Below are positions 1-8,115 of a stretch of 64,000 bases of DNA, one piece after another. The DNA is taken from IMG/VR virus record IMGVR_UViG_3300030104_006589, positions 1 through 64,000 of that record. One strand, given 5' to 3'. Origin of the DNA: an uncultured virus (IMG/VR IMGVR_UViG_3300030104_006589) (Duplodnaviria; Heunggongvirae; Uroviricota; Caudoviricetes). Numbering within the stretch: the stretch's first letter is position 1; each line of letters starts with the position of its first letter. The translations under genes were made by a program, and so were the position numbers. The notes under the pieces are model-generated. The model was given only the letters and a program-made list of their open reading frames with translations, searched no databases and had not been told where the DNA came from.

Positions 1-119
1 TCTGGGAGTGTGTTGCTCGCGATCTTGATGTGAAATCTGCCTGTCTTGCTTTTGCGGCAATCAAAGGTTTTCAAATGGGCAAGCTGTATAGCTCTATCAA
101 AATCAACAAAAAGTTTTAA
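1..119 (+). CDS. hypothetical protein, 3' end only
   Basis: Open frame from window edge (WECVARDLDVK...INKKF) ending TAA at 117-119, directly before the next ATG. Confidence 0.35.
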   Translation, partial: WECVARDLDVKSACLAFAAIKGFQMGKLYSSIKINKKF

Positions 120-120
120 T

Positions 121-276
121 ATGATAACAGAACTACAAAAAGAACTAGGCGACCTTGAGAGAAACATTAGGTTTCTTCAACCAGATAAACTAAGGTGGAC
201 AGAGAACCGAAAAGCACTAATTGATCAGTTAGACTATATCAAAGAGCTTGCCCGAAAAGCAGAAAGCAAGTCGTAA
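121..276 (+). CDS. hypothetical protein (51 aa)
   Basis: ATG at 121 (MITELQKELG...); stop TAA 274-276 lies inside repeat copy 1. Confidence 0.55.
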   Translation: MITELQKELGDLERNIRFLQPDKLRWTENRKALIDQLDYIKELARKAESKS

Positions 277-351
277 GTCCTTAAGGCTTAACGACTTACG
301 CGGCTCGGGAAGGCCCGCGCTCCGTAACTCATTGATGCTCAACGAGTTACA
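272..351. repeat. 80-bp double-palindrome repeat, copy 1
   Basis: cgtaagtcctt-aaggctt-aacgacttacg / 22-bp GC-rich spacer / cgtaactcatt-gatgctc-aacgagttaca. Confidence 0.95.
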
Positions 352-397
352 CAACATAATACGCAGAAAAAAAATACATTTTAATACAAAAAAAAGC

Positions 398-425
398 TTG
401 CAATCTCTATTTAGTGTGGTATACT
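398..425 (+). promoter_or_regulatory. sigma70-type promoter (extended -10)
   Basis: TTGCAA-16-TATACT with TGn, upstream A-tracts, ATG 6 nt downstream (432). Confidence 0.65.
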
Positions 426-483
426 ACCTCCATGAAATTGAAATTCCCTACTCTCTGGAGCAAAAAAAAGAATAAATTACCCC

Positions 484-512
484 TTGACATCACCCCTCTT
501 TTGCCTTATAGT
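484..512 (+). promoter_or_regulatory. sigma70-type promoter, leaderless
   Basis: TTGACA-17-TATAGT, ATG at 519 six nt downstream. Confidence 0.8.
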
Positions 513-518
513 TCCCTT

Positions 519-809
519 ATGAAAGAAAACCAACCTAACCTCGTAATTCCTGAGCGTCCGCTCTTCCCTAATAACCCTATCCACCTTGCGTCTACCCTAA
601 CGGGCAAGACTGTTGTTTACCACAACGCCAAGGCATCGACTGTCACTCCTGACAAGGTGCGCGTGTTTAAGGTTCGTGGGGTCGAAGATGTTTTCACCTC
701 CGAAGCAAGTGGCGCAAAGTGTGTCACTGTCAGCGTCAACGACATTGATGATGGTGGTAGCGTGAAATACCGCACCCTCCACATTGATGGTATCCAATCC
801 GCCAATTAA
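519..809 (+). CDS. hypothetical protein (possible longer in-frame form from 432)
   Basis: ORF track 414..809; start re-assigned to the ATG after the consensus promoter. Confidence 0.7.
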   Translation: MKENQPNLVIPERPLFPNNPIHLASTLTGKTVVYHNAKASTVTPDKVRVFKVRGVEDVFTSEASGAKCVTVSVNDIDDGGSVKYRTLHIDGIQSAN

Positions 810-823
810 CTTTTAGTTACTAG

Positions 824-891
824 GTAGGAGTATAGGGAACGGGGGGTTATCAGGTTAACCCGTAAGGGTCGCCCCCCGTTCCTGATCCTGC
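824..891 (+). other. intergenic RNA stem-loop with nested GNRA hairpin
   Basis: ggaacgggggg pairs with ccccccgttcc; inner accc-GTAA-gggt; outer gtagga/tcctgc. Confidence 0.55.
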
Positions 892-901
892 AAAATTTTC
901 C

Positions 902-930
902 TTTACAAATAACAAACCATACATTACATT
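902..930 (+). promoter_or_regulatory. sigma70-type promoter, leaderless
   Basis: TTTACA-17-TACATT, ATG at 937 six nt downstream. Confidence 0.6.
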
Positions 931-936
931 AACATC

Positions 937-1152
937 ATGCCTAAACCAACCGAATCCGTCCGTATCGAAGTTAAAAACAAAGACCAAGCTGCATTGCTTA
1001 ACTATGCCTTGGGTCTTGTTCATCGTGATCTCTCAAATAGACTTGAAGAGGTTTCAGATGACAAACTGGATGACTTCATGGATAACGTCAAGTGGACACG
1101 TAAACACGCAACCACATTAAACGAAAAGTTTTCTTTGACTACAGAAGTATAA
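937..1152 (+). CDS. hypothetical protein
   Basis: 71-aa ORF directly after promoter. Confidence 0.7.
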   Translation: MPKPTESVRIEVKNKDQAALLNYALGLVHRDLSNRLEEVSDDKLDDFMDNVKWTRKHATTLNEKFSLTTEV

Positions 1153-1165
1153 ACTTTCTAGAAAA

Positions 1166-1443
1166 GGTCTGATTGGCGGGGGCAGAACCGCAAAGCGATA
1201 CAGGATAACCTGAAGCCCCTAGCTCCTCCAACAAACAAAATTGTTGGTTAAAAAGCTAATCACTAACTAAACAATCCCGCGAAGGTCTCTGTGACTAGCG
1301 GGAGGGTAAAACACACAGAGGCTCCCAGTGGTGGGCAATACCGCTAGGTGGTAACAGTGACCAGATCCTTAATTGACTGGCACTCGTCAACAAACCGACC
1401 CTCTCCCGCCACGCTTTACTAGTCAGCCTCTGACGGGAGGGGG
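1166..1443 (+). ncRNA. candidate structured ncRNA with two pseudoknots
   Basis: No ORF of 60 aa or more, GC-richer than flanks; long-range pairing 1174-1182/1403-1411; H-type pseudoknot 1275-1280/1298-1303 with 1287-1293/1314-1320; second pseudoknot 1356-1390. Confidence 0.6.
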
Positions 1444-1474
1444 ATATAACTTTCTGTGGTCTGGTTGTCATGCT

Positions 1475-1514
1475 ACCCCGTCCCCTTCTTTGCTGGGGGG
1501 CGGGGTTTTGCTTT
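1475..1514 (+). terminator. rho-independent terminator
   Basis: accccgtcccc...ggggcggggt followed by tttgcttt. Confidence 0.75.
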
Positions 1515-1593
1515 ATAAGTAACTGATAGTGAACGACTTACGGAGCGCGGGCCAGCCCGCACTGCGTAACTCCTTGACATGCAACGAGTTATA
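1514..1593. repeat. 80-bp double-palindrome repeat, copy 2
   Basis: tataagtaact-gatagtg-aacgacttacg / gagcgcgggccagcccgcactg / cgtaactcctt-gacatgc-aacgagttata. Confidence 0.95.
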
Positions 1594-1628
1594 AATAAAA
1601 AAAAAGAATAAAAAAGAATAAAAAAGAC

Positions 1629-1656
1629 TTGCACACTTCTCTATTTGTGTTATACT
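1629..1656 (+). promoter_or_regulatory. sigma70-type promoter with A-tract UP element
   Basis: TTGCAC-16-TATACT with TGn, long A-tracts at 1594-1626. Confidence 0.7.
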
Positions 1657-1665
1657 ATGGGCGTT

Positions 1666-2040
1666 ATGGGACTAGATCAATACGCAAAAAAAGTAAAGAG
1701 AGAATACAATCATGAGACTCTCACAGAGACAATCGTCAAAACTGAAATAGGTTATTGGCGCAAACACAATGCTTTAGAGGGTTACATGGCTGACCTCTAC
1801 CGCACTAAGACGGGTGACGAAGGAGAGTTTAACTGCAAGACTCTTCCTCTTGATTCTGACGACTTGGACACCTTGGAGGCAGTAATCGAAAGGGGCAACT
1901 TGCCTGAAACCGTAGGTTTCTTTTTTGGTAATTGCACCAAAGATAATGAGGAGTTTAAGGAACTAGACCTTGAGTTTATAGCCAAGGCTAGGAAATGTCT
2001 TGCAAATGGTTTCGAGGTAGAGTATACTTCTTGGTGGTAA
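1666..2040 (+). CDS. conserved phage hypothetical protein
   Basis: MGLDQY...EIGYWRKHNAL...YTSWW pattern recalled from a common phage protein family. Confidence 0.75.
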   Translation: MGLDQYAKKVKREYNHETLTETIVKTEIGYWRKHNALEGYMADLYRTKTGDEGEFNCKTLPLDSDDLDTLEAVIERGNLPETVGFFFGNCTKDNEEFKELDLEFIAKARKCLANGFEVEYTSWW

Positions 2041-2041
2041 G

Positions 2042-2218
2042 ATGGAAGAACGACCCTACAAAGTATACCTGAGAGAGATCCACTGGCAGGAAGCTGTCGT
2101 GGATGCCGTGAGCCGAGCAGATGCCATTCAAAAAGTATTGGACGGTGACGGTCAATACGGGAACGGCACTAGATATGAAGAAACCTGCGAGGACGGGCAT
2201 AGAGTTGAAGAGATATGA
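2042..2218 (+). CDS. small acidic hypothetical protein (58 aa)
   Basis: MEERPYKVYLREIHWQEAVVDAVSRADAIQKV...; fills the gap between neighbours with ATGA overlap. Confidence 0.6.
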   Translation: MEERPYKVYLREIHWQEAVVDAVSRADAIQKVLDGDGQYGNGTRYEETCEDGHRVEEI

Positions 2219-2427
2219 ATATCTTTCGCACTCTATCAGAAGATAAAAGAATGTTGTTTAATGTTACTTACAAAGACGGCAACTATAAGCTGGTTGATAA
2301 GCTGGGTATTCACTTGGCTGAAGATGATGGCACATGGAGTGCCGCCCTTCCCCTCTGCCACTTCCCTCAAAAGGAGATCGAGCATATGATTGAACACATT
2401 GAGGTAACTCTAAACAAAGCAATTTAA
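2215..2427 (+). CDS. hypothetical protein
   Basis: 70-aa ORF, operon-like packing. Confidence 0.6.
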   Translation: MNIFRTLSEDKRMLFNVTYKDGNYKLVDKLGIHLAEDDGTWSAALPLCHFPQKEIEHMIEHIEVTLNKAI

Positions 2428-2429
2428 TT

Positions 2430-2624
2430 ATGCAATACGACATCGACTACTATGACAAGGAGGGAAACCATTGCGGAACCTCTGCGCTTCTTGCTTTCAC
2501 GGGCAAGGTTTACTCTCACCAGTATCTCACCGACATGGCCAAGCAGGAGATGAAGGATGACTTCTTTCCTGGAGCTAAATACTTTGAGATATCAATCAAG
2601 GAAGCAATAGATGAAAGACAATAA
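2430..2624 (+). CDS. hypothetical protein
   Basis: 64-aa ORF, operon-like packing. Confidence 0.6.
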   Translation: MQYDIDYYDKEGNHCGTSALLAFTGKVYSHQYLTDMAKQEMKDDFFPGAKYFEISIKEAIDERQ

Positions 2625-2787
2625 ACAAGTAACCACTAGCGACAGCCACACCGATTACATGAGAGGCTTGTCTACTGCGGTAGGTAAAGCGTGTGATGCG
2701 TGGCTAGATAAAAAAGGATTAAAAAGCAAAAGCTGGAAAGAGCAGAACAACGAAACCTTTAAGAAACAAAAAAATGGAAATCGCTAA
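2611..2787 (+). CDS. hypothetical protein (58 aa)
   Basis: MKDNKQVTTSDSHTDYMRGLSTAVGKACDAW...; overlaps neighbours. Confidence 0.5.
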   Translation: MKDNKQVTTSDSHTDYMRGLSTAVGKACDAWLDKKGLKSKSWKEQNNETFKKQKNGNR

Positions 2788-2878
2788 ACTATTCTTCTAT
2801 GCCTTGGCAGGGTTTCTTGCTGTGGTATTCCTTGCCGCCATCGTAATAGGTATGGTGCTGTTGGGAACGCCCGCATAA
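2774..2878 (+). CDS. small single-pass membrane peptide (34 aa)
   Basis: MEIAKLFFYALAGFLAVVFLAAIVIGMVLLGTPA; stop codon lies inside repeat copy 3. Confidence 0.5.
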   Translation: MEIAKLFFYALAGFLAVVFLAAIVIGMVLLGTPA

Positions 2879-2953
2879 CTCACTTAGTATCAATCACTTA
2901 CGGAGCGGGGGCTGGCCCGCGCTGCGTAACTCGTTGATACTCAACGAGTTACA
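2874..2953. repeat. 80-bp double-palindrome repeat, copy 3
   Basis: cataactcact-tagtatc-aatcacttacg / gagcgggggctggcccgcgctg / cgtaactcgtt-gatactc-aacgagttaca. Confidence 0.95.
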
Positions 2954-3033
2954 TAGCAAGACGAGGCACACCTTTTCTATTTGTCAAGCAAAAACTTACC
3001 CAGAAAAAAATAAAAAAAAAGAATAAAAAGGAC

Positions 3034-3062
3034 TTGCAATAAATCAAATCGTGCTGTATACT
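3034..3062 (+). promoter_or_regulatory. sigma70-type promoter with A-tract UP element
   Basis: TTGCAA-17-TATACT; A-tracts 3004-3029 similar to those after copy 2. Confidence 0.75.
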
Positions 3063-3071
3063 TACTGCATC

Positions 3072-3848
3072 ATGAGCTTAATCCTAGCAAAAAACAAAGT
3101 CGATATCGCCCAGCTTGCTGAAGTCAAAACTCCTTCCGCAACTGACACTCACACTCCAATCTCTCACGCACTCCTCGTTGATCAGGCGCACAAGGCACTT
3201 GATCGCGCAGGGTTGACCATCGAGCAGGAGGAACACGCGCTTGGCCGTGGTGGTCTTCGTTACTTCGGAGGCTTCGCCATCAAGGGTGAAGACATGGAAG
3301 CTAAAGATCGCCGTCTGGTGGTCGGGCTTCGTAACGCACACGATAAGTCCTTCGCGGCTTCCGTGTGCATCGGCAACCAGATGATGGTTTGCGAAAACCT
3401 TTGCTTCTCTTCTGATGTGAAGCTCGCTCGTCGCCACACGACGAACATCTTGCGCGACCTTCCAATGGTCTTGTCTAACGCGATCTCTCGCGTTGTCTCC
3501 CACTGGGCAGACATGGGCAAGCGCATCGAGTCCTACAAGAACACCGAGGTTCAGCGTGACCGTTGCGCCGACATGGTGGTTGACCTTGTGGATGCGAAAG
3601 CGTTTCCCGCTCGCGATGTCTACAAGGCAGTGCAGGAGTTCCGCAACCCTCGTCACGACGAGTTCAAGGGCGGTTCCCTCTGGACACTTTACAACGGGAT
3701 CACCGAGCATCTCAAGGGTGGCGACCTTACCAAGTTGCCCCAACGCACCATGACGGTGCAGTCGGTCTTCGACAAGATCGCAGGTCACGCTCCCGTGATC
3801 GAGGCGGTCGAAGTCGAGGAGTCTGATGCAATCGTGCTTCCCGCATAG
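3072..3848 (+). CDS. DUF932-like protein
   Basis: Motifs THTPISH, GLRNAHDKSFAASV, VCENLCF, RRHT, SLWTLYNGITE. Confidence 0.7.
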   Translation: MSLILAKNKVDIAQLAEVKTPSATDTHTPISHALLVDQAHKALDRAGLTIEQEEHALGRGGLRYFGGFAIKGEDMEAKDRRLVVGLRNAHDKSFAASVCIGNQMMVCENLCFSSDVKLARRHTTNILRDLPMVLSNAISRVVSHWADMGKRIESYKNTEVQRDRCADMVVDLVDAKAFPARDVYKAVQEFRNPRHDEFKGGSLWTLYNGITEHLKGGDLTKLPQRTMTVQSVFDKIAGHAPVIEAVEVEESDAIVLPA

Positions 3849-3868
3849 CCCTGACGTTACCAACACCC

Positions 3869-3918
3869 AACCCGCTCCCGAGGCTACGGCTTACTATCGG
3901 GGGCGGGTTCTTTTTTTG
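3869..3918 (+). terminator. rho-independent terminator
   Basis: aacccgctcccga...tcgggggcgggtt then ctttttttg. Confidence 0.8.
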
Positions 3919-3934
3919 TGTGCGTAATAAGAAT

Positions 3935-4014
3935 CGTAAGTCGTTGAGTATCAACGACTTACGCGGCGCGGGCCAGCCCGCCCTGCGTAACTCCTTAAGG
4001 CTCAACGAGTTATG
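3935..4014. repeat. 80-bp double-palindrome repeat, copy 4
   Basis: cgtaagtcgtt-gagtatc-aacgacttacg (perfect 11-bp arms) / cggcgcgggccagcccgccctg / cgtaactcctt-aaggctc-aacgagttatg. Confidence 0.95.
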
Positions 4015-4029
4015 AATTAAAAATACCTC

Positions 4030-4057
4030 TTGACAAATCCCTGTCTTGCGCTATACT
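4030..4057 (+). promoter_or_regulatory. sigma70-type promoter, leaderless
   Basis: TTGACA-16-TATACT, ATG at 4064. Confidence 0.75.
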
Positions 4058-4063
4058 CTCACT

Positions 4064-4360
4064 ATGGCAAATTCATATAGCATCCAAAGAACTGATACAG
4101 ATAGAATCCCCGCCCCGTTTGATTTCACCTTTGAGTGGGACAATGGAACAGAAAAAACATTTATAGTTGTTTCATTGCATGGCGCGAAGGCACTAGCCGA
4201 AACATTTAGAAACTTCGGTTACGAAGAGGAAGAAGGTAGTATTAGGTTTGCTTCAGATGCGCGAACTTTGGAAAGGCTTTCACCGATTGCGAAGTTGGCG
4301 AAGGGCGATTGCCCTTTACCGACCGACTCATGCAATCCTTCTGATTTTAAATCAATTTAA
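4064..4360 (+). CDS. hypothetical protein
   Basis: MANSYSIQ...; start after promoter. Confidence 0.65.
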   Translation: MANSYSIQRTDTDRIPAPFDFTFEWDNGTEKTFIVVSLHGAKALAETFRNFGYEEEEGSIRFASDARTLERLSPIAKLAKGDCPLPTDSCNPSDFKSI

Positions 4361-4361
4361 A

Positions 4362-4390
4362 TTGACACCCGCAGAAGTCTATAGTATAGT
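4362..4390 (+). promoter_or_regulatory. sigma70-type promoter, leaderless
   Basis: TTGACA-17-TATAGT, ATG at 4396. Confidence 0.8.
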
Positions 4391-4395
4391 TGGCC

Positions 4396-5082
4396 ATGTC
4401 GAAACTTCTAAACGCTGGAAACTATAAAACCAGCAAGGGCGAAAAGTATGGTTGGAAAACCTACGGCTTGCACCTTGCACCATATAACCTATCAGGAAAA
4501 AATGTTTGTTCTTCTGCTACTGCTGGTTGTTCTACTGCTTGCCTCAATACTGCTGGTCGTGGAATCATGCATTCCGTTCAAGATGCCCGAGTTAAAAAGA
4601 CACGAAGGTTTTTCGAAGATCGGGATGGATTCTTATCGCAGTTATACAAAGAAATCACAAGCTCGATTAAAAGCGCGAAAAGAAAACAAATAAACTCTTG
4701 TTTTAGATTGAATCTTACAAGTGACCTGCCATGGGAAAACCTAGTTGTAAAATACTTCCCCTTTGCTCAGTTCTACGACTATACCAAACACTTAAAAAGA
4801 TTCGTTAGGTTCTTAGAGGGTAAACTTCCCACTAACTATCACCTAACATACTCCCGCAGTGAAGAGACACCTGACGCGCTAGTGAAGAGCTTATGTGCAA
4901 GTGGAGGTAATGTCGCCGTGGTTTTTCGCGATCACCTGCCAGAGACATGGCTAGGAATAGAAGTGATAGACGGAGACGACTCAGACCTACGCTTCCAGGA
5001 TGGCAAAGGTAAGATTGTAGGATTACTTGAAAAAGGACTTGCGAAGAAGGACGAAACGGGGTTTGTTGTAGAGCCATGCTAG
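4396..5082 (+). CDS. GP88-family phage protein (Cys-rich, probable Fe-S)
   Basis: LHLAP...NVCSSATAGCSTACLNTAGRG, RLNLTSDLPW, QFYDYTK, NYHLTYS, DGDDSDLRF. Confidence 0.75.
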   Translation: MSKLLNAGNYKTSKGEKYGWKTYGLHLAPYNLSGKNVCSSATAGCSTACLNTAGRGIMHSVQDARVKKTRRFFEDRDGFLSQLYKEITSSIKSAKRKQINSCFRLNLTSDLPWENLVVKYFPFAQFYDYTKHLKRFVRFLEGKLPTNYHLTYSRSEETPDALVKSLCASGGNVAVVFRDHLPETWLGIEVIDGDDSDLRFQDGKGKIVGLLEKGLAKKDETGFVVEPC

Positions 5083-5139
5083 AGTTTGTCCTATTCCTAT
5101 TGTTGTTATACTTAGCCTGTTACCGATCAAGATAAAGAT

Positions 5140-5304
5140 ATGAAAATAAAAGAAGAACTCCAAGAAATACTAGACGACCACAGGTCGCAGATAATTGATA
5201 TGCTCAAGGAAGATGCAGAAGATGCTCTCGTTGTAGATGTTGAATCTAACCTTGACCGCATGATAACAGAAGTAAACGAATTGTTAGGCTCTAGCTATGA
5301 CTAA
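5140..5304 (+). CDS. small acidic hypothetical protein (54 aa)
   Basis: MKIKEELQEILDDHRSQIIDML... Confidence 0.5.
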   Translation: MKIKEELQEILDDHRSQIIDMLKEDAEDALVVDVESNLDRMITEVNELLGSSYD

Positions 5305-5389
5305 ATAGGATAAAGCTCTAGGGGTTGTGGGCATGGTGTGCGGGGAGATCCCGTAACGAGGTAATGATCTTATTCCTCCATGAAACACC

Positions 5390-5469
5390 CGTAACTCCTT
5401 AACACTTAAGGACTTACGGAGCGCGGGCTGGCCCGCCCCGCGTAACTCGTTGAGTATCAATGACTTATG
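5390..5469. repeat. 80-bp double-palindrome repeat, copy 5
   Basis: cgtaactcctt-aacactt-aaggacttacg / gagcgcgggctggcccgccccg / cgtaactcgtt-gagtatc-aatgacttatg; at the convergent strand switch. Confidence 0.95.
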
Positions 5470-5490
5470 ACGCAAAATTGGCTAATAGAC

Positions 5491-5516
5491 AAAAAGAAAA
5501 CCCGCATTTCTGCGGG
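5491..5516 (-). terminator. rho-independent terminator
   Basis: minus strand cccgca-gaaa-tgcggg then ttttcttttt. Confidence 0.75.
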
Positions 5517-5521
5517 CCTAC

Positions 5522-5579
5522 TTATTTAGTTGATTCTATTTGATCCTGCCGATTATTTAGTTAACATTGCACGACCTGC
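5522..5579 (+). repeat. TTATTT-N14-GA(T/C)C motif, 2 copies
   Basis: TTATTT at 5522 and 5553, each with GATC/GACC starting 20 nt later. Confidence 0.6.
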
Positions 5580-6049
5580 AACTTTCCCAGTGTCTCTGCC
5601 TTCTTGCCTTGGAGCCAGACTCCATCCCAATTCTTATGCCTTGGTCTGCGGTAATAATATCTGTATACTTTACCCGTGTCCTTATTAATTAATTTATACT
5701 TTCCTTTTGTGGTTTTAACTGTGCCACCCCTGTCTTCAGACTTGTAGCATCTCTCTGGTCTGGCCCCGACCTTCCGACACATACGTTTCCATACGAAGTC
5801 ATGCCCGTGTCCCGCGCCTGTTAATGCGTGGGCGATCTCATGCAAAACAACATCTTTGGTTTCTTCTATTGTGTTTAAGTTCGCCAACACTTTGGTAATC
5901 CCGATCTCCCTCTTTCTGTATCGGCACTGACCGTATCGACGCACTGCTCTGGTGTCCCAAACGAACGACCAACCTTCTTCGATTAGCCCCCACTCTTCCA
6001 TCTTCTGGAGAGCAAACTCTTTTACTTTGTGTAGCTTAATCAGATCCAT
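5561..6049 (-). CDS. SprT-like zinc metalloprotease
   Basis: RRYGQC, VVLHEIAHAL, HGHDFVWK, GARPERC. Confidence 0.85.
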   Translation of the reverse strand: MDLIKLHKVKEFALQKMEEWGLIEEGWSFVWDTRAVRRYGQCRYRKREIGITKVLANLNTIEETKDVVLHEIAHALTGAGHGHDFVWKRMCRKVGARPERCYKSEDRGGTVKTTKGKYKLINKDTGKVYRYYYRRPRHKNWDGVWLQGKKAETLGKLQVVQC

Positions 6050-6097
6050 TTTTCTTTAGTGCTAATATTAATAAACAAACAAACAAAATAAATTCAA

Positions 6098-6397
6098 TCA
6101 CTGCTCGATGAGGTGTTCAACGTGGTTCATGAAATATCTCTCCATCTCAGCCAGTGCTTGCAGGTGCTTCTGCCTCTCATTGTATGCCCTAGAGAATGCG
6201 TTGTCATCATTAAAAGCATCCATGGCGGGATCGTTATCCTGCACATAGTAATCTCTGCCGTGAAATTCGCAAGATTGAATTGCCTCCTTCACCTCATTGA
6301 TTGCTCCAAGGATTCTGGTGTTGCCCTCTAATAGCATCTTTTTTCCTGTGCCGTTAAGATGGACTGTGGGTAGTGGATAGTTTACTGTCTCAGTCAT
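6098..6397 (-). CDS. hypothetical protein
   Basis: MTETVNYPLPTVHLNGTG...; start 6 nt after a -10 box. Confidence 0.7.
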   Translation of the reverse strand: MTETVNYPLPTVHLNGTGKKMLLEGNTRILGAINEVKEAIQSCEFHGRDYYVQDNDPAMDAFNDDNAFSRAYNERQKHLQALAEMERYFMNHVEHLIEQ

Positions 6398-6403
6398 GCG
6401 TAA

Positions 6404-6432
6404 ACTATACACCCCACCTACGGTGGGGTCAA
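6404..6432 (-). promoter_or_regulatory. sigma70-type promoter with palindromic spacer
   Basis: TTGACC-17-TATAGT; spacer holds accccacc-tac-ggtggggt. Confidence 0.75.
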
Positions 6433-6569
6433 GAATAAAAATGAATTAAAAATCCCTGAAGTTTATGCAGACCATAATGATAACAGCAATTACGTATAGG
6501 GGGATACAACACAAAACAAAACTGATGGTTAGCATTATGCCTATGGTGCGGAATGTCATGGCTAATCAC

Positions 6570-6707
6570 TTATTTAGAATCGTGCGTTTGATCTGGCTAA
6601 TTGTTTATTTAAAAGCTTTCGTTTGATCTGGGTGTTTATTTAGGCGATTCCATTCGATCCGCACTTTTTGTTTATTTAGATTATTTGGGTTGATCTGGAC
6701 GATCTGG
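6570..6707 (+). repeat. array of five TTATTT-N14-GATC motifs
   Basis: TTATTT at 6570, 6605, 6636, 6672, 6681; GATC at 6590, 6625, 6656, 6692, 6701. Confidence 0.85.
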
Positions 6708-6777
6708 GTGTGGCGGGATTCGAACCCGCACTTTACAGATTTTAAGTCTGTTGCCTCTGCCGTTGGGCTACACACCC
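6705..6777 (-). tRNA. tRNA-Leu(TAA), short variable loop, no encoded CCA
   Basis: GGGTGTG/CACACCC acceptor stem, ACAGA-CTTAAAA-TCTGT anticodon arm, GCGGG-TTCGAAT-CCCGC T arm, A discriminator. Confidence 0.9.
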
Positions 6778-7099
6778 TTGGTCTTATCCTAGCCGTCTGA
6801 CCAATAATCGTTTATCTCTTCGTCCTCTGCTGACGTTTTCTCCCCGTGGAAATAACATTTATATAGGAAGTAAAAGAACCAAAGAAAGAACCAAAAGGGG
6901 TCAAATCCATACATAACTACTTTAAATTGTTTTAAATGTGATTTAAATAATTAAAATGTAGAGGGAGTAACGAGATCACAGCATAAACTACTTTCCCTAT
7001 GTTTGCAGTATATTCTTTTATATTCTGCCCTCTATGTATATACTCTATCATATTATCCTAAACACACTGATTAAAAAGTTATTTTATAATTGCAAACGG

Positions 7100-7315
7100 T
7101 TACTCTGGTGATTTCAAATCATAGATTCTATCCAATACTCTATTTCTTTTTCTGTAACTATGTGCTAATTCTTTTACTCTCTCTATCTCTTTGAGTGTTT
7201 CTGTTACTCTGTCTGAGCTTGTGCCTTTGGCTAATCCTCTGAGGTCTACTTCTGCATAGGTAACAACCGATAACAGTTCTTCTATTAGCTTATCCTCGTT
7301 GGTGTATTGGCTCAT
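7100..7315 (-). CDS. hypothetical protein
   Basis: 71-aa ORF. Confidence 0.6.
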   Translation of the reverse strand: MSQYTNEDKLIEELLSVVTYAEVDLRGLAKGTSSDRVTETLKEIERVKELAHSYRKRNRVLDRIYDLKSPE

Positions 7316-7473
7316 TTGTTTTCAGAGAGGGGAGACAAGATGCATACAATAGAAACAACAAACAATAAGATAGCAATCCAGCCCCAACTATACCAGCACA
7401 GTGCGATTGGTATCCATATGGATATATGAGCTAAACTCATAGAACAAAGAATGCTTCTCTCTTTCCAACTCAT
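7312..7473 (-). CDS. small membrane protein
   Basis: MSWKERSILCSMSLAHISIWIPIALCWYSWGWIAILLFVVSIVCIL...; overlaps neighbours at start/stop. Confidence 0.45.
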   Translation of the reverse strand: MSWKERSILCSMSLAHISIWIPIALCWYSWGWIAILLFVVSIVCILSPLSENK

Positions 7474-7595
7474 CACTCATCTTCTTTTATTATGTTACCG
7501 TATCTATCGTAGTGGAGATCATCTGCCTCACTGGTAGGTTGACCACTCTCACCCCAATCTATTGTCCATGATACAGTTATAGTCTCGTCTTCCAT
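7473..7595 (-). CDS. small acidic protein (40 aa)
   Basis: MEDETITVSWTIDWGES...; ATG 7 nt after TATAGT. Confidence 0.45.
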   Translation of the reverse strand: MEDETITVSWTIDWGESGQPTSEADDLHYDRYGNIIKEDE

Positions 7596-7602
7596 CTGCT
7601 CA

Positions 7603-7631
7603 ACTATACCCTCTCCCGAAGGAGAGGGCAA
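7603..7631 (-). promoter_or_regulatory. sigma70-type promoter with hairpin in spacer
   Basis: TTGCCC-17-TATAGT; ccctctcc-ttcg-ggagaggg on the minus strand. Confidence 0.6.
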
Positions 7632-7644
7632 GTCTTTTTCCCCT

Positions 7645-7947
7645 TTACTCATTGATCAGAATCTTGATGCTGTCCTTAGAACGCTTGAGGGTAATGGTAT
7701 CACCTGCTTCTGCTTGATGTTTTAGCTTAGTGATTGAGATTCTCTTGTCTCCTCTGGTCTTAGCCTTATAGAATGTTACCTTTGCTTCGGTTCCGTCAGG
7801 ATACTTACCCGATACAAAGTGCTTCTGACCACATTCTGCTTCTGAATAATCAAAAGAGAATTGTTTGGCTAGGTCACAAACTGATTTGTTTGCGTCGATT
7901 ATGCTCTTCTTGAGCATGGTGTCTGTTATATTAATGGTTGCTTTCAT
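7645..7947 (-). CDS. putative DNA-binding protein resembling an N-terminal accessory domain of MvaI/BcnI-family restriction endonucleases
   Basis: TDTMLKKSIIDA...KVTFYKAKTRGDKRISITKLKHQAEAGDTI; similarity recalled, not computed. Confidence 0.5.
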   Translation of the reverse strand: MKATINITDTMLKKSIIDANKSVCDLAKQFSFDYSEAECGQKHFVSGKYPDGTEAKVTFYKAKTRGDKRISITKLKHQAEAGDTITLKRSKDSIKILINE

Positions 7948-7950
7948 AAA

Positions 7951-8115
7951 TTAATTACCGTTGATCTCTAGTAGGATATCAATCTCGTTTTGTCTTGAAT
8001 CTGGTTGGTTAAAGTGTAAGGTGTTGCACTTAACACAATACTTCTTTTTTGCTTTTTCGTGGATGTAATCTTCCTCACACTCACAGTCCCAATAATCTTC
8101 GTTTAACTCTATCAT
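7951..8115 (-). CDS. small Cys-rich (zinc-ribbon-like) protein
   Basis: YWDCECEEDYIH...CVKC...QPDSR. Confidence 0.55.
   Translation of the reverse strand: MIELNEDYWDCECEEDYIHEKAKKKYCVKCNTLHFNQPDSRQNEIDILLEINGN

Follow-up and report, generated by a model that had tools for sequence, protein, structure and literature searches.

Results

A structured tract follows a 71-aa gene in an early phage cassette

The window, which is the whole 64-kb stretch of DNA analysed here, is part of a tailed-phage genome and encodes tail and fibre proteins, a DnaE-type polymerase, a helicase and a Lon-like protease. Its G+C content is 39%, and its single tRNA (Rfam 15, gathering threshold) lies at 6705-6777. The first 5.5 kb is a row of small plus-strand cassettes. 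Each has a sigma-70-like promoter with a start codon a few bases 3' of the -10 box, and a hairpin or terminator and a boundary repeat of ~70 nt were read behind several of them. A search of 50,697 isolated-phage records gave a DNA match neither to 1153-1640 nor to 1-8000, and the window DNA polymerase was at most 29% identical to those in the same records. The record closest to the window itself, G001 (14.6 kb), lacks the RNA region described below. The features of the cassette are as follows.

902-930, plus strand: sigma-70-like promoter, TTTACA-17-TACATT; relatives share the layout
937-1152, plus strand: 71-aa early gene; a homologue lies directly upstream of the RNA in 56/56 loci
1153-1514, plus strand: structured RNA tract without an ORF of 60 aa or more
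1170-1262, plus strand: 5' domain (MFE fold; compensatory changes in relatives L077, L002 and L090)
1170-1177/1255-1262, plus strand: closing stem of the 5' domain, in 5/36 complete unique variants
1178-1183/1215-1220, plus strand: stem of a three-way junction with hairpins 1189-1197 and 1201-1212, in 11/36 complete unique variants
1228-1247, plus strand: inner hairpin of the 5' domain
1275-1320, plus strand: H-type pseudoknot, helices S1 (1275-1280/1298-1303) and S2 (1287-1293/1314-1320)
1327-1345, plus strand: small hairpin, 1327-1331/1341-1345; 99.3% paired, one-sided G-C to G-U changes only
1347-1398, plus strand: invariant 52-nt core, an irregular hairpin by RNAalifold and by single-sequence folding
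1399-1443, plus strand: pyrimidine/purine hairpin, outer stem 1399-1408/1434-1443, apical stem 1413-1415/1425-1427
1416-1424, plus strand: 9-nt loop with the palindrome ACTAGT at 1418-1423
1444-1455, plus strand: conserved tail ATATAACTTTCT, which replaces the U-run of a terminator
1475-1514, plus strand: intrinsic terminator, 12-bp stem 1475-1506 and T-run, in 27/36 complete unique variants
1516-1656, plus strand: boundary repeat, A-rich tract and promoter of the next gene, outside the RNA
1629-1634 and 1651-1656, plus strand: promoter boxes of the next gene, TTGCAC and TATACT

The start codon of the 71-aa gene is only 6 nt behind the -10 box of the 902-930 promoter, and its mRNA is therefore probably leaderless; we infer the transcription start itself. 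The protein is predicted to form a two-helix hairpin (pLDDT 80). Homologues are 67-71 aa long and 58-100% identical. Searches of Pfam, PHROG and the ESM Atlas gave no informative match, comparison of the predicted fold with the PDB gave no match (best E 3.1), and the 50,697 isolated-phage records held no matching protein. The gene family comprises 176 protein clusters, of which none has an informative name. Of the RNA-anchored loci, 56 have 480 nt or more of upstream sequence, and in every one of them a homologue of the gene ends 21-245 nt before the core.

The tract behind the gene folds on the plus strand

A sequence-only reading had proposed a structured non-coding RNA of ~350 nt in this place, and all the motifs that it quoted are present at their positions. 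It had noted that no ORF of 60 aa or more is found here. A scan from the stop codon of the 71-aa gene (1152) to the next start codon (1666) agreed with this: the longest frames are 58 aa (1295..1471, minus strand), 53 aa (minus strand) and 49 aa (plus strand). The fold of the plus strand has an energy of -134.8 kcal/mol and a z-score of -4.41, which none of 100 shuffled sequences equalled. The minus strand has a z-score of -2.28 and was equalled by one of 100. G-U pairs in helices, which would be A-C mismatches on the other strand, fill 28 of 330 cells in the 1399-1443 hairpin and 51 of 535 cells in the pseudoknot and small hairpin. The cassette is flanked on the plus strand by the promoter at 902-930 and the terminator at 1475-1506; as proposed, the RNA is phage-borne and lies in an early cassette. 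The fold z-scores, the strand-specific G-U pairs and the orientation of promoter and terminator place the RNA on the plus strand. The tract 1153-1514 is a plus-strand folded RNA and neither a protein-coding stretch nor a chance fold. This part of the proposal stood. The single closed fold with two pseudoknots and a switch did not; the relatives show independent modules.

We searched the tract against Rfam 15, a check that had been suggested with the proposal. It matches no family there, including tmRNA, RNase P, 6S, introns, riboswitches, ribozymes, GOLLD and ROOL; at E up to 10, the best score for 1000-1750 was 20.6 bits against a threshold of 54. The loci of 30 relatives gave only tRNAs, manA-like matches and weak antisense-tRNA matches, all outside the RNA, and ARAGORN found no tmRNA. 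No published description of the RNA family was found in Rfam 15 or in the literature, of which the supplements of PMC10690425 were covered in part. That study (Fremin et al. 2023) lists 10,006 candidate viral RNAs, and the family may be among them.

Several other kinds of element were considered and set aside. A protein-coding reading was rejected: out of 40 unique segments, any one core-anchored frame is open in 11 at most, and two different frames are represented among the open segments. A ToxI-like array of a type III toxin-antitoxin system was rejected because 1153-1514 has no tandem repeat, the only one found being the A-rich tract at 1593-1627. The RNA lies 3' of its gene, and the downstream gene varies among relatives and has its own promoter, which does not fit a riboswitch. 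The purine-rich arm is not the ribosome-binding site of a small ORF, as the sequences that follow it differ among relatives and share no start codon. A tRNA-like minihelix with a CCA end was also dropped, the tail reading ..CCAC.. in some relatives and ..TAAC.. in the window and many others.

Relatives carry the RNA as a variable chain of modules

Relatives were gathered through the flanking proteins and through exact core patterns; both patterns would have missed more diverged cores. They were found only in uncultured marine phage contigs (15 IMG/VR loci and 47 marine metagenome loci), with 46 distinct variants of 175 nt among them. No match in IMG/VR was found for an exact pattern of 26 nt taken from the 5' domain. 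Two 18-mers of the core, searched in the genomes of 185,579 species, gave 0 and 11 scattered matches that did not extend, and neither a copy nor a complement of the core was found there.

The search anchored on the 71-aa gene returned 26 loci, of which 15 have the core, 2 end early and 9 have another RNA behind the gene. Among these nine, L121-L123 have the small hairpin and the pyrimidine/purine hairpin only, with a U-run directly after, and L102 and L120 have the pyrimidine/purine hairpin (two of them in L102) and a second terminator. In L104, L106, L107 and L109 the gene is followed by quite different modules with another terminator, and both the core and the palindromic hairpin are absent.

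In relatives with the core, the pseudoknot, the junction and the extra modules are optional. The pseudoknot is present in 29 of 36 complete unique variants (a 30th, in L101, was missed by the pattern) and an extra 3' module in 8 of 36. Among the same 36 variants, a GC-rich second terminator is present in 27, another type of terminator in 6 and a U-run straight after the hairpin in 3. Wherever modules occur, their order is constant. The length of the tract ranges from ~30 nt behind the gene (L121-L123, with the terminator hairpin alone) to some 300-450 nt, and the RNA of the window is among the longest forms in the family. In 18 of 60 RNA-anchored loci, a set that was not deduplicated, a tRNA-Met gene begins a few bases past the U-run of the second terminator, while the window and 26 of the 36 complete unique variants have no tRNA gene after the RNA. 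By sequence comparison, the RNA is a chain of modules in a 3' untranslated region that are added, dropped or swapped among relatives. These comparisons show that the modules fold on their own.

The 5' domain closes locally

The sequence-only reading had joined the two ends of the RNA by long-range closing helices, ggtctgattgg/ctagtcagcc and 1174-1182/1403-1411. The relatives support neither helix, and no more than 5 of 36 complete unique variants have the 5' partners. Their 5' bases pair locally instead, in 1170-1177/1255-1262 and 1178-1183/1215-1220, and both local stems show compensatory changes. The closing stem of the 5' domain is GAUUGGC/GCUAAUC in the window and GAUCGGC/GCCGAUU in L077, and the stem of the junction occurs as GGGGC/GCCCC, GGAGC/GCUCC and ACAGC/GCUGU. 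A G-to-A change in L077 is compensated in the 3' arm of the junction and not at 1403-1411. When forced, the helix 1174-1182/1403-1411 lies 4 kcal/mol above the optimum and is energetically possible. The other long-range partner, ctagtcagc, is the conserved apical loop of the 1399-1443 hairpin and is kept even in RNAs that have no 5' domain. The three small hairpins proposed for this domain fared better. Comparison with relatives supported cgc-aaa-gcg (1189-1191/1195-1197), cagg-ataa-cctg (1201-1204/1209-1212), where CAGG/CCUG becomes CUGG/CCAG, and ccaacaa/ttgttgg (1228-1234/1241-1247).

One of two proposed pseudoknots is maintained by compensatory change

The loops of an H-type pseudoknot must be long enough to span its helices. 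In the first of two pseudoknots proposed, at 1275-1320, the loops are of 6, 4 and 10 nt, which is workable, and the third loop (1304-1313) is A-rich. Both of its helices are kept by compensatory change. The arms of S1 fall into eight sequence classes, all of them complementary: UCCCGC/GCGGGA, CCCCG/CGGGG, CACC/GGUG, CAUCC/GGAUG, CUCCC/GGGAG, UUCUUUCC/GGAAAGAA, UUUUCCCC/GGGGAAAA and UCCCU/AGGGA. Over 25 unique combinations, the pairing of flank and loop in S1 averaged -10.5 kcal/mol for cognate and -7.3 kcal/mol for non-cognate partners, and only 11 of the 40320 permutations of the eight class representatives paired as well as the cognate arrangement. In one fixed register S1 is 77% paired, with two classes shifted by one column in the model-fitted alignment, and five of its six pairs are changed on both sides. 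S2 is 99% paired in that alignment, with three of seven pairs changed on both sides. This pseudoknot was therefore borne out.

The second pseudoknot (1356-1390) was not. Its third loop is 1 nt, set against a helix of 7-8 bp, and its bases are invariant and show no covariation. Its two helices are at best alternatives that never form at full length together.

A 52-nt core is invariant between freely varying modules

The predicted fold of the core pairs 1356-1364 with 1377-1384 around a bulged A and is closed by 1347-1349/1394-1396. The paired bases are invariant, so that covariation is silent on this fold. Differences between cores consist of two main versions of the loop, in its 5' half, and otherwise only of the last few bases, including 1394. 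The A-to-G change at 1364 gains the stem a pair, and G or A at 1394 keeps a U-G or U-A pair in the closing helix. In 41 unique combinations of gene and core, third codon positions of the gene are on average 54% identical and 4 of 67 are invariant. The part of the core that each search pattern left free is still invariant, in 15 of 15 loci and in the 47 loci as far as each reaches. Within the gene-anchored set, the core is either exact or absent, with no intermediates. The modules that adjoin it on both sides vary freely, which makes a recent transfer of the core alone unlikely. The core is more constrained than the phage's own tRNA.

We looked for pairing partners of the core. The rest of the 64-kb window has no complementarity to it of 11 nt or more, and its 10-mer and 9-mer matches do not exceed those of shuffled cores. 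Pairing with phage tRNAs was likewise no better than for shuffled cores. Any likeness of the core's 3' single strand to the antiterminator boxes of ribosomal operons is partial and at about chance level.

The 3' hairpin carries a self-complementary loop and is a terminator in some relatives

An alternative pairing of segment 1399-1411 upstream of a terminator had been proposed. The pairing 1399-1408/1434-1443 is real; it is not an alternative but the dominant hairpin, and covariation supports it. Pairing is kept in 99.4% of the hairpin's 330 cells, both sides have changed in 5 of its 12 stem pairs, and none of 500 shuffles reached its covariation score. RNAalifold recovered this hairpin and the small one at 1327-1345 without our input. 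The stem is 10-12 bp long, and longer variants insert helices while keeping the apical GCU-loop-AGC. The 9-nt loop consists of two bases, N-CUAG-N' and a C. Among 22 sequences, N/N' is U/A in 15, A/U in 6 and G/C in 1, with no mismatch. A further loop variant, TCTAGG, with a G-U pair, occurs in L054, and L083 has the same loop. Both main types of palindromic loop were found with both loop variants of the core. The covariation of this loop pair could equally reflect a base pair within the loop.

A hairpin of the 1399-1443 type followed directly by a U-run forms an intrinsic terminator in L062, L089, L099 and L121-L123, and not in the window. Judged from these relatives, the 1399-1443 hairpin is derived from the intrinsic terminator of the gene, which it still is in some of them. 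The terminator that had been read downstream is indeed present, as the 1475-1506 hairpin followed by a T-run, and 1475-1514 is likely to be the 3' end of the RNA.

Metatranscriptome assemblies contain the region

Fourteen marine RNA libraries, from 8 of the 12 studies listed, share words with 900-1700. One RNA run contains a contig over 846-1586 at 99% identity or more, together with other parts of the early region. The same sample yielded, in a second run, a fragment of the RNA that is likewise at least 99% identical. Fragments of the RNAs of relatives are present in two further runs, which come from two other studies. The contigs, from four runs and three studies, can hold DNA and show no strand, ends or level. 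Those of runs X2, X3 and X5 are short and cover the RNA partly, that of X1 ends at the cassette repeats, and gaps and depth are uninformative. Metatranscriptome coverage, which had been suggested as a check, thus places the region in assemblies of three studies, but as contigs only, which do not prove transcription.

Discussion

We favour, tentatively and at somewhat less than even confidence, a stable early RNA that acts in trans, serves through its invariant core as a decoy or platform for a conserved partner, and may dimerise. The host-type promoter at 902-930 would start a probably leaderless mRNA for the 71-aa protein, and the same transcript would run on through ~360 nt of modules to the intrinsic terminator at 1475-1514. 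The RNA would work in trans, either released from the message or left as its tail. Its core would bind a conserved partner of the host, or of the phage, the other modules would protect the RNA or add binding sites, and the palindromic loop would pair two copies loop to loop. The modularity fits independent trans-acting units, because modules come and go in a fixed order. The nine relatives that keep the gene without the core count against a trans-acting core. The strict linkage to the gene (56/56 loci) would also fit a cis-acting element or a protein partner. A further form of this idea, in which the core and the palindromic hairpin self-assemble as dimers or in larger bodies and trap a conserved host factor multivalently early in infection, is one we consider quite unlikely.

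The strict linkage raises the possibility that the RNA controls termination in cis, driving polymerase read-through of the 1399-1443 hairpin, the 1475-1514 terminator and terminators of later cassettes chiefly by its core, as processive antitermination with or without the 71-aa protein. We regard this as unlikely, though as the main rival. A small first gene, a structured RNA of ~300 nt and terminators on one transcript match the layout of conAn. The tRNA-Met gene in 18 of 60 loci leaves no room for a promoter, so that the second terminator must be read through there, and this tRNA is absent from all nine informative core-less relatives. In addition, some relatives have the 1399-1443 hairpin as a true terminator and in others its U-run is gone, and the invariance of the core would fit contact with the conserved transcription machinery of the host. 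However, the window and 26 of 36 complete unique variants have no tRNA gene after the RNA, and the next cassette downstream has its own promoter in the window and in the relatives read, so read-through is not needed. The tRNA-bearing loci belong to one protein clade and their association is thus not independent; most modules would also stay unexplained, and the conserved palindromic loop would have no role. The same linkage could instead reflect binding of the RNA by the 71-aa protein made ahead of it, for example at the palindromic loop or a loop-loop complex, in a ribonucleoprotein or in self-regulation. Gene and RNA are never separated in the 56 loci or the 26 gene-anchored loci, and the protein is predicted to be a two-helix hairpin of no known family. 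Small helical-hairpin dimers that bind loop-loop RNA complexes exist, such as Rop of ColE1 plasmids. Yet no RNA module is universal, L104, L106, L107 and L109 lacking both the core and the palindromic hairpin; the protein varies (58-100% identity) whereas the core does not, and nothing marks the protein as RNA-binding. We consider this reading more doubtful still.

The tract could also be a passive 3' tail, with hairpins and tandem terminators that shield the message from 3' exonucleases and insulate the cassette, and with modules that recombine between co-infecting phages. The minimal relatives L121-L123, with a terminator hairpin only, are of this form, modules are gained, lost and swapped among relatives, and the boundary repeats of the cassettes offer sites for recombination. 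An invariant stretch of 52 nt between varying modules, however, needs purifying selection on sequence and not just on stability, and compensatory changes maintain the pseudoknot and the loop palindrome. We hold such a tail to be as improbable as the protein-partner explanation. Finally, the tract might not act as RNA at all and might be a DNA site (an origin, an attachment site or a protein-binding site) or encode a small minus-strand protein (ORF 1295..1471). In 18 of 40 unique segments no stop interrupts the minus strand over 185 nt, and as DNA the loop hexamers are palindromic. Against this, the open frames lie in two registers relative to the core, the other 22 of the 40 segments contain stops, G-U pairs are strand-specific and paired positions covary, and cellular genomes hold no copy that would mark an attachment site. 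We consider this highly improbable.

Parts of this RNA recall known systems. Folded modules are strung along a 3' untranslated region, as in flaviviruses. A conserved element lies directly 5' of a terminator hairpin (L062, L089, L099), as in bacterial small RNAs derived from 3' UTRs. Unlike these small RNAs, the RNA has no target complementarity in the window and its invariant part is far longer than the usual seed. In kissing-loop dimerisation hairpins such as the dimerisation initiation site of HIV-1, two bases precede and one base follows a self-complementary sequence of 6 nt in an apical loop of 9 nt. The 1399-1443 hairpin has a loop of this layout, and paired changes keep its self-complementarity. 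In contrast to the HIV-1 site, its central CUAG is fixed and variation is confined to the outer pair, pyrimidines flank the sequence, and some relatives have the hairpin as a terminator.

In lambdoid phages, the nutR and putR sites lie behind cro. conAn2 is the RNA half of a bipartite system for processive antitermination in Gram-positive conjugative plasmids (PMC8191782). There, gene 28 and the 315-356-bp region behind it act only in cis, and conAn2 depends on a GC-rich stretch and on stem-loops. The RNA described here resembles conAn2 in being a structured RNA of ~300-350 nt directly behind a first small gene and before terminators. It differs in host range and type of element, and in that most downstream cassettes have their own promoters.

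ROOL and GOLLD are large 'ornate' RNAs of phages and prophages that assemble via kissing loops, they often lie beside tRNA genes, and GOLLD env-38 lies downstream of a Met-tRNA (bioRxiv 10.1101/2024.12.08.627333). Our RNA resembles them in being phage-borne, multi-domain and pseudoknotted. Its palindromic loop could act as their kissing loops do. A tRNA-Met comes directly after the RNA in 18 of 60 loci, and not in the window. Unlike ROOL and GOLLD, it is half their size or less and is the tail of a protein-coding message rather than a free-standing gene, and their covariance models matched neither the window stretch (E up to 10) nor 10 relatives (E up to 0.1). The manA RNA (RF01745) is marine and associated with cyanophages (PMC2864571), and was recently reported to self-assemble (bioRxiv 10.64898/2026.07.01.735769). 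Sub-threshold manA-like matches occur in a neighbouring early cassette of some relatives. manA is a separate RNA in a separate cassette, and the RNA at 1153-1514 has no manA match.

GOLLD, ROOL and manA build assemblies of RNA only, yet none of them has a known job. The family described here is short and abundant in ocean data, and it offers experimental handles in a pseudoknot proven by covariation, a 52-nt core and a terminator hairpin with a self-complementary loop. Should the core bind a host factor, this would identify a new target in the takeover of marine bacteria by phages. Should the RNA instead act on RNA polymerase, it would represent a new antiterminator made of RNA, and if it self-assembles, it would count as a small cousin, carried on a message, of the assemblies that ROOL, GOLLD and manA build.

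Layout of the early cassettes

In early genes of the window, ~3-10 nt separate the -10 box of a sigma-70-like promoter from the start codon downstream of it, a spacing that leaves no room for a ribosome-binding site. Judged from this sequence layout, these genes appear to be leaderless.

Early promoters with start codons in apparently leaderless layout (window)
398-436
484-522
902-939
1629-1668
3034-3074

A long GC-rich hairpin without a clear U-run (GGGAACGGGGGG...CCCCCCGTTCC; window 810-900) forms the end of the cassette upstream of the 71-aa gene (937-1152). In four of the 30 relatives' loci scanned (two sets of 10 and 20, with L063 in both), all from uncultured marine phage contigs, the cassette immediately upstream of this gene carries a manA-like RNA (RF01745); none was found in the window. 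The manA RNAs have been reported to form 8- to 60-mer cages (2026 preprint, bioRxiv 10.64898/2026.07.01.735769).

manA-like RNAs in relatives' loci
L072:50-225, + strand, 54.2 bits versus a gathering score of 55.2
L074:99-278, + strand, within 36.8-38.6 bits
L085:1149-1328, - strand, within 36.8-38.6 bits
L063:72-252, + strand, within 36.8-38.6 bits

Modules and tRNA behind the 71-aa gene

The heptamer ACTTTCT occurs twice in direct orientation, once directly after the stop codon of the 71-aa gene and once within the tail that follows the 3' hairpin; the two copies thereby enclose the whole module array. The repeat and the TCTAGA palindrome could be a remnant of a recombinational insertion or deletion.

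Repeats around the module array (window)
1153-1159 and 1449-1455, ACTTTCT direct repeat
1157-1162, TCTAGA palindrome after the first copy

Further conserved RNA modules stand behind the same gene in L104, L106, L107, L109 (about 1710-2100), L048 and L052. One is stem-closed, ~60-100 nt long and starts with GGAGGGTATAGTCACCGAG, and another, GGAGG.AAGCCCCAACGGAG, lies upstream of a different terminator; neither has an Rfam match.

Behind the second terminator's U-run lies a same-strand tRNA-Met (CAU) gene in L040, L043, L047, L049, L051, L053-L055, L064, L065, L074, L081, L083, L085, L088, L092, L095 and L097. The gap was a few bases in the loci inspected directly, with matching distances in the remainder. 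Since this leaves no room for a promoter, the second terminator must be leaky or overridden at these loci. Covariation across relatives was seen in the tRNA-Met anticodon stem and none in the RNA core.

Cassette-boundary element

A repeated element of ~70 nt precedes each early promoter in the window and is also found at the cassette borders of relatives. It consists of a GC-rich hairpin flanked by two direct copies of the motif GTAACTC..AACGA.TTA, and can be compared with the PeSL elements known from T4-type phages.

Cassette-boundary elements (window)
300-360
1520-1590
2885-2950
3940-4010
5390-5450

The element is likely a recombination site for the shuffling of cassettes.
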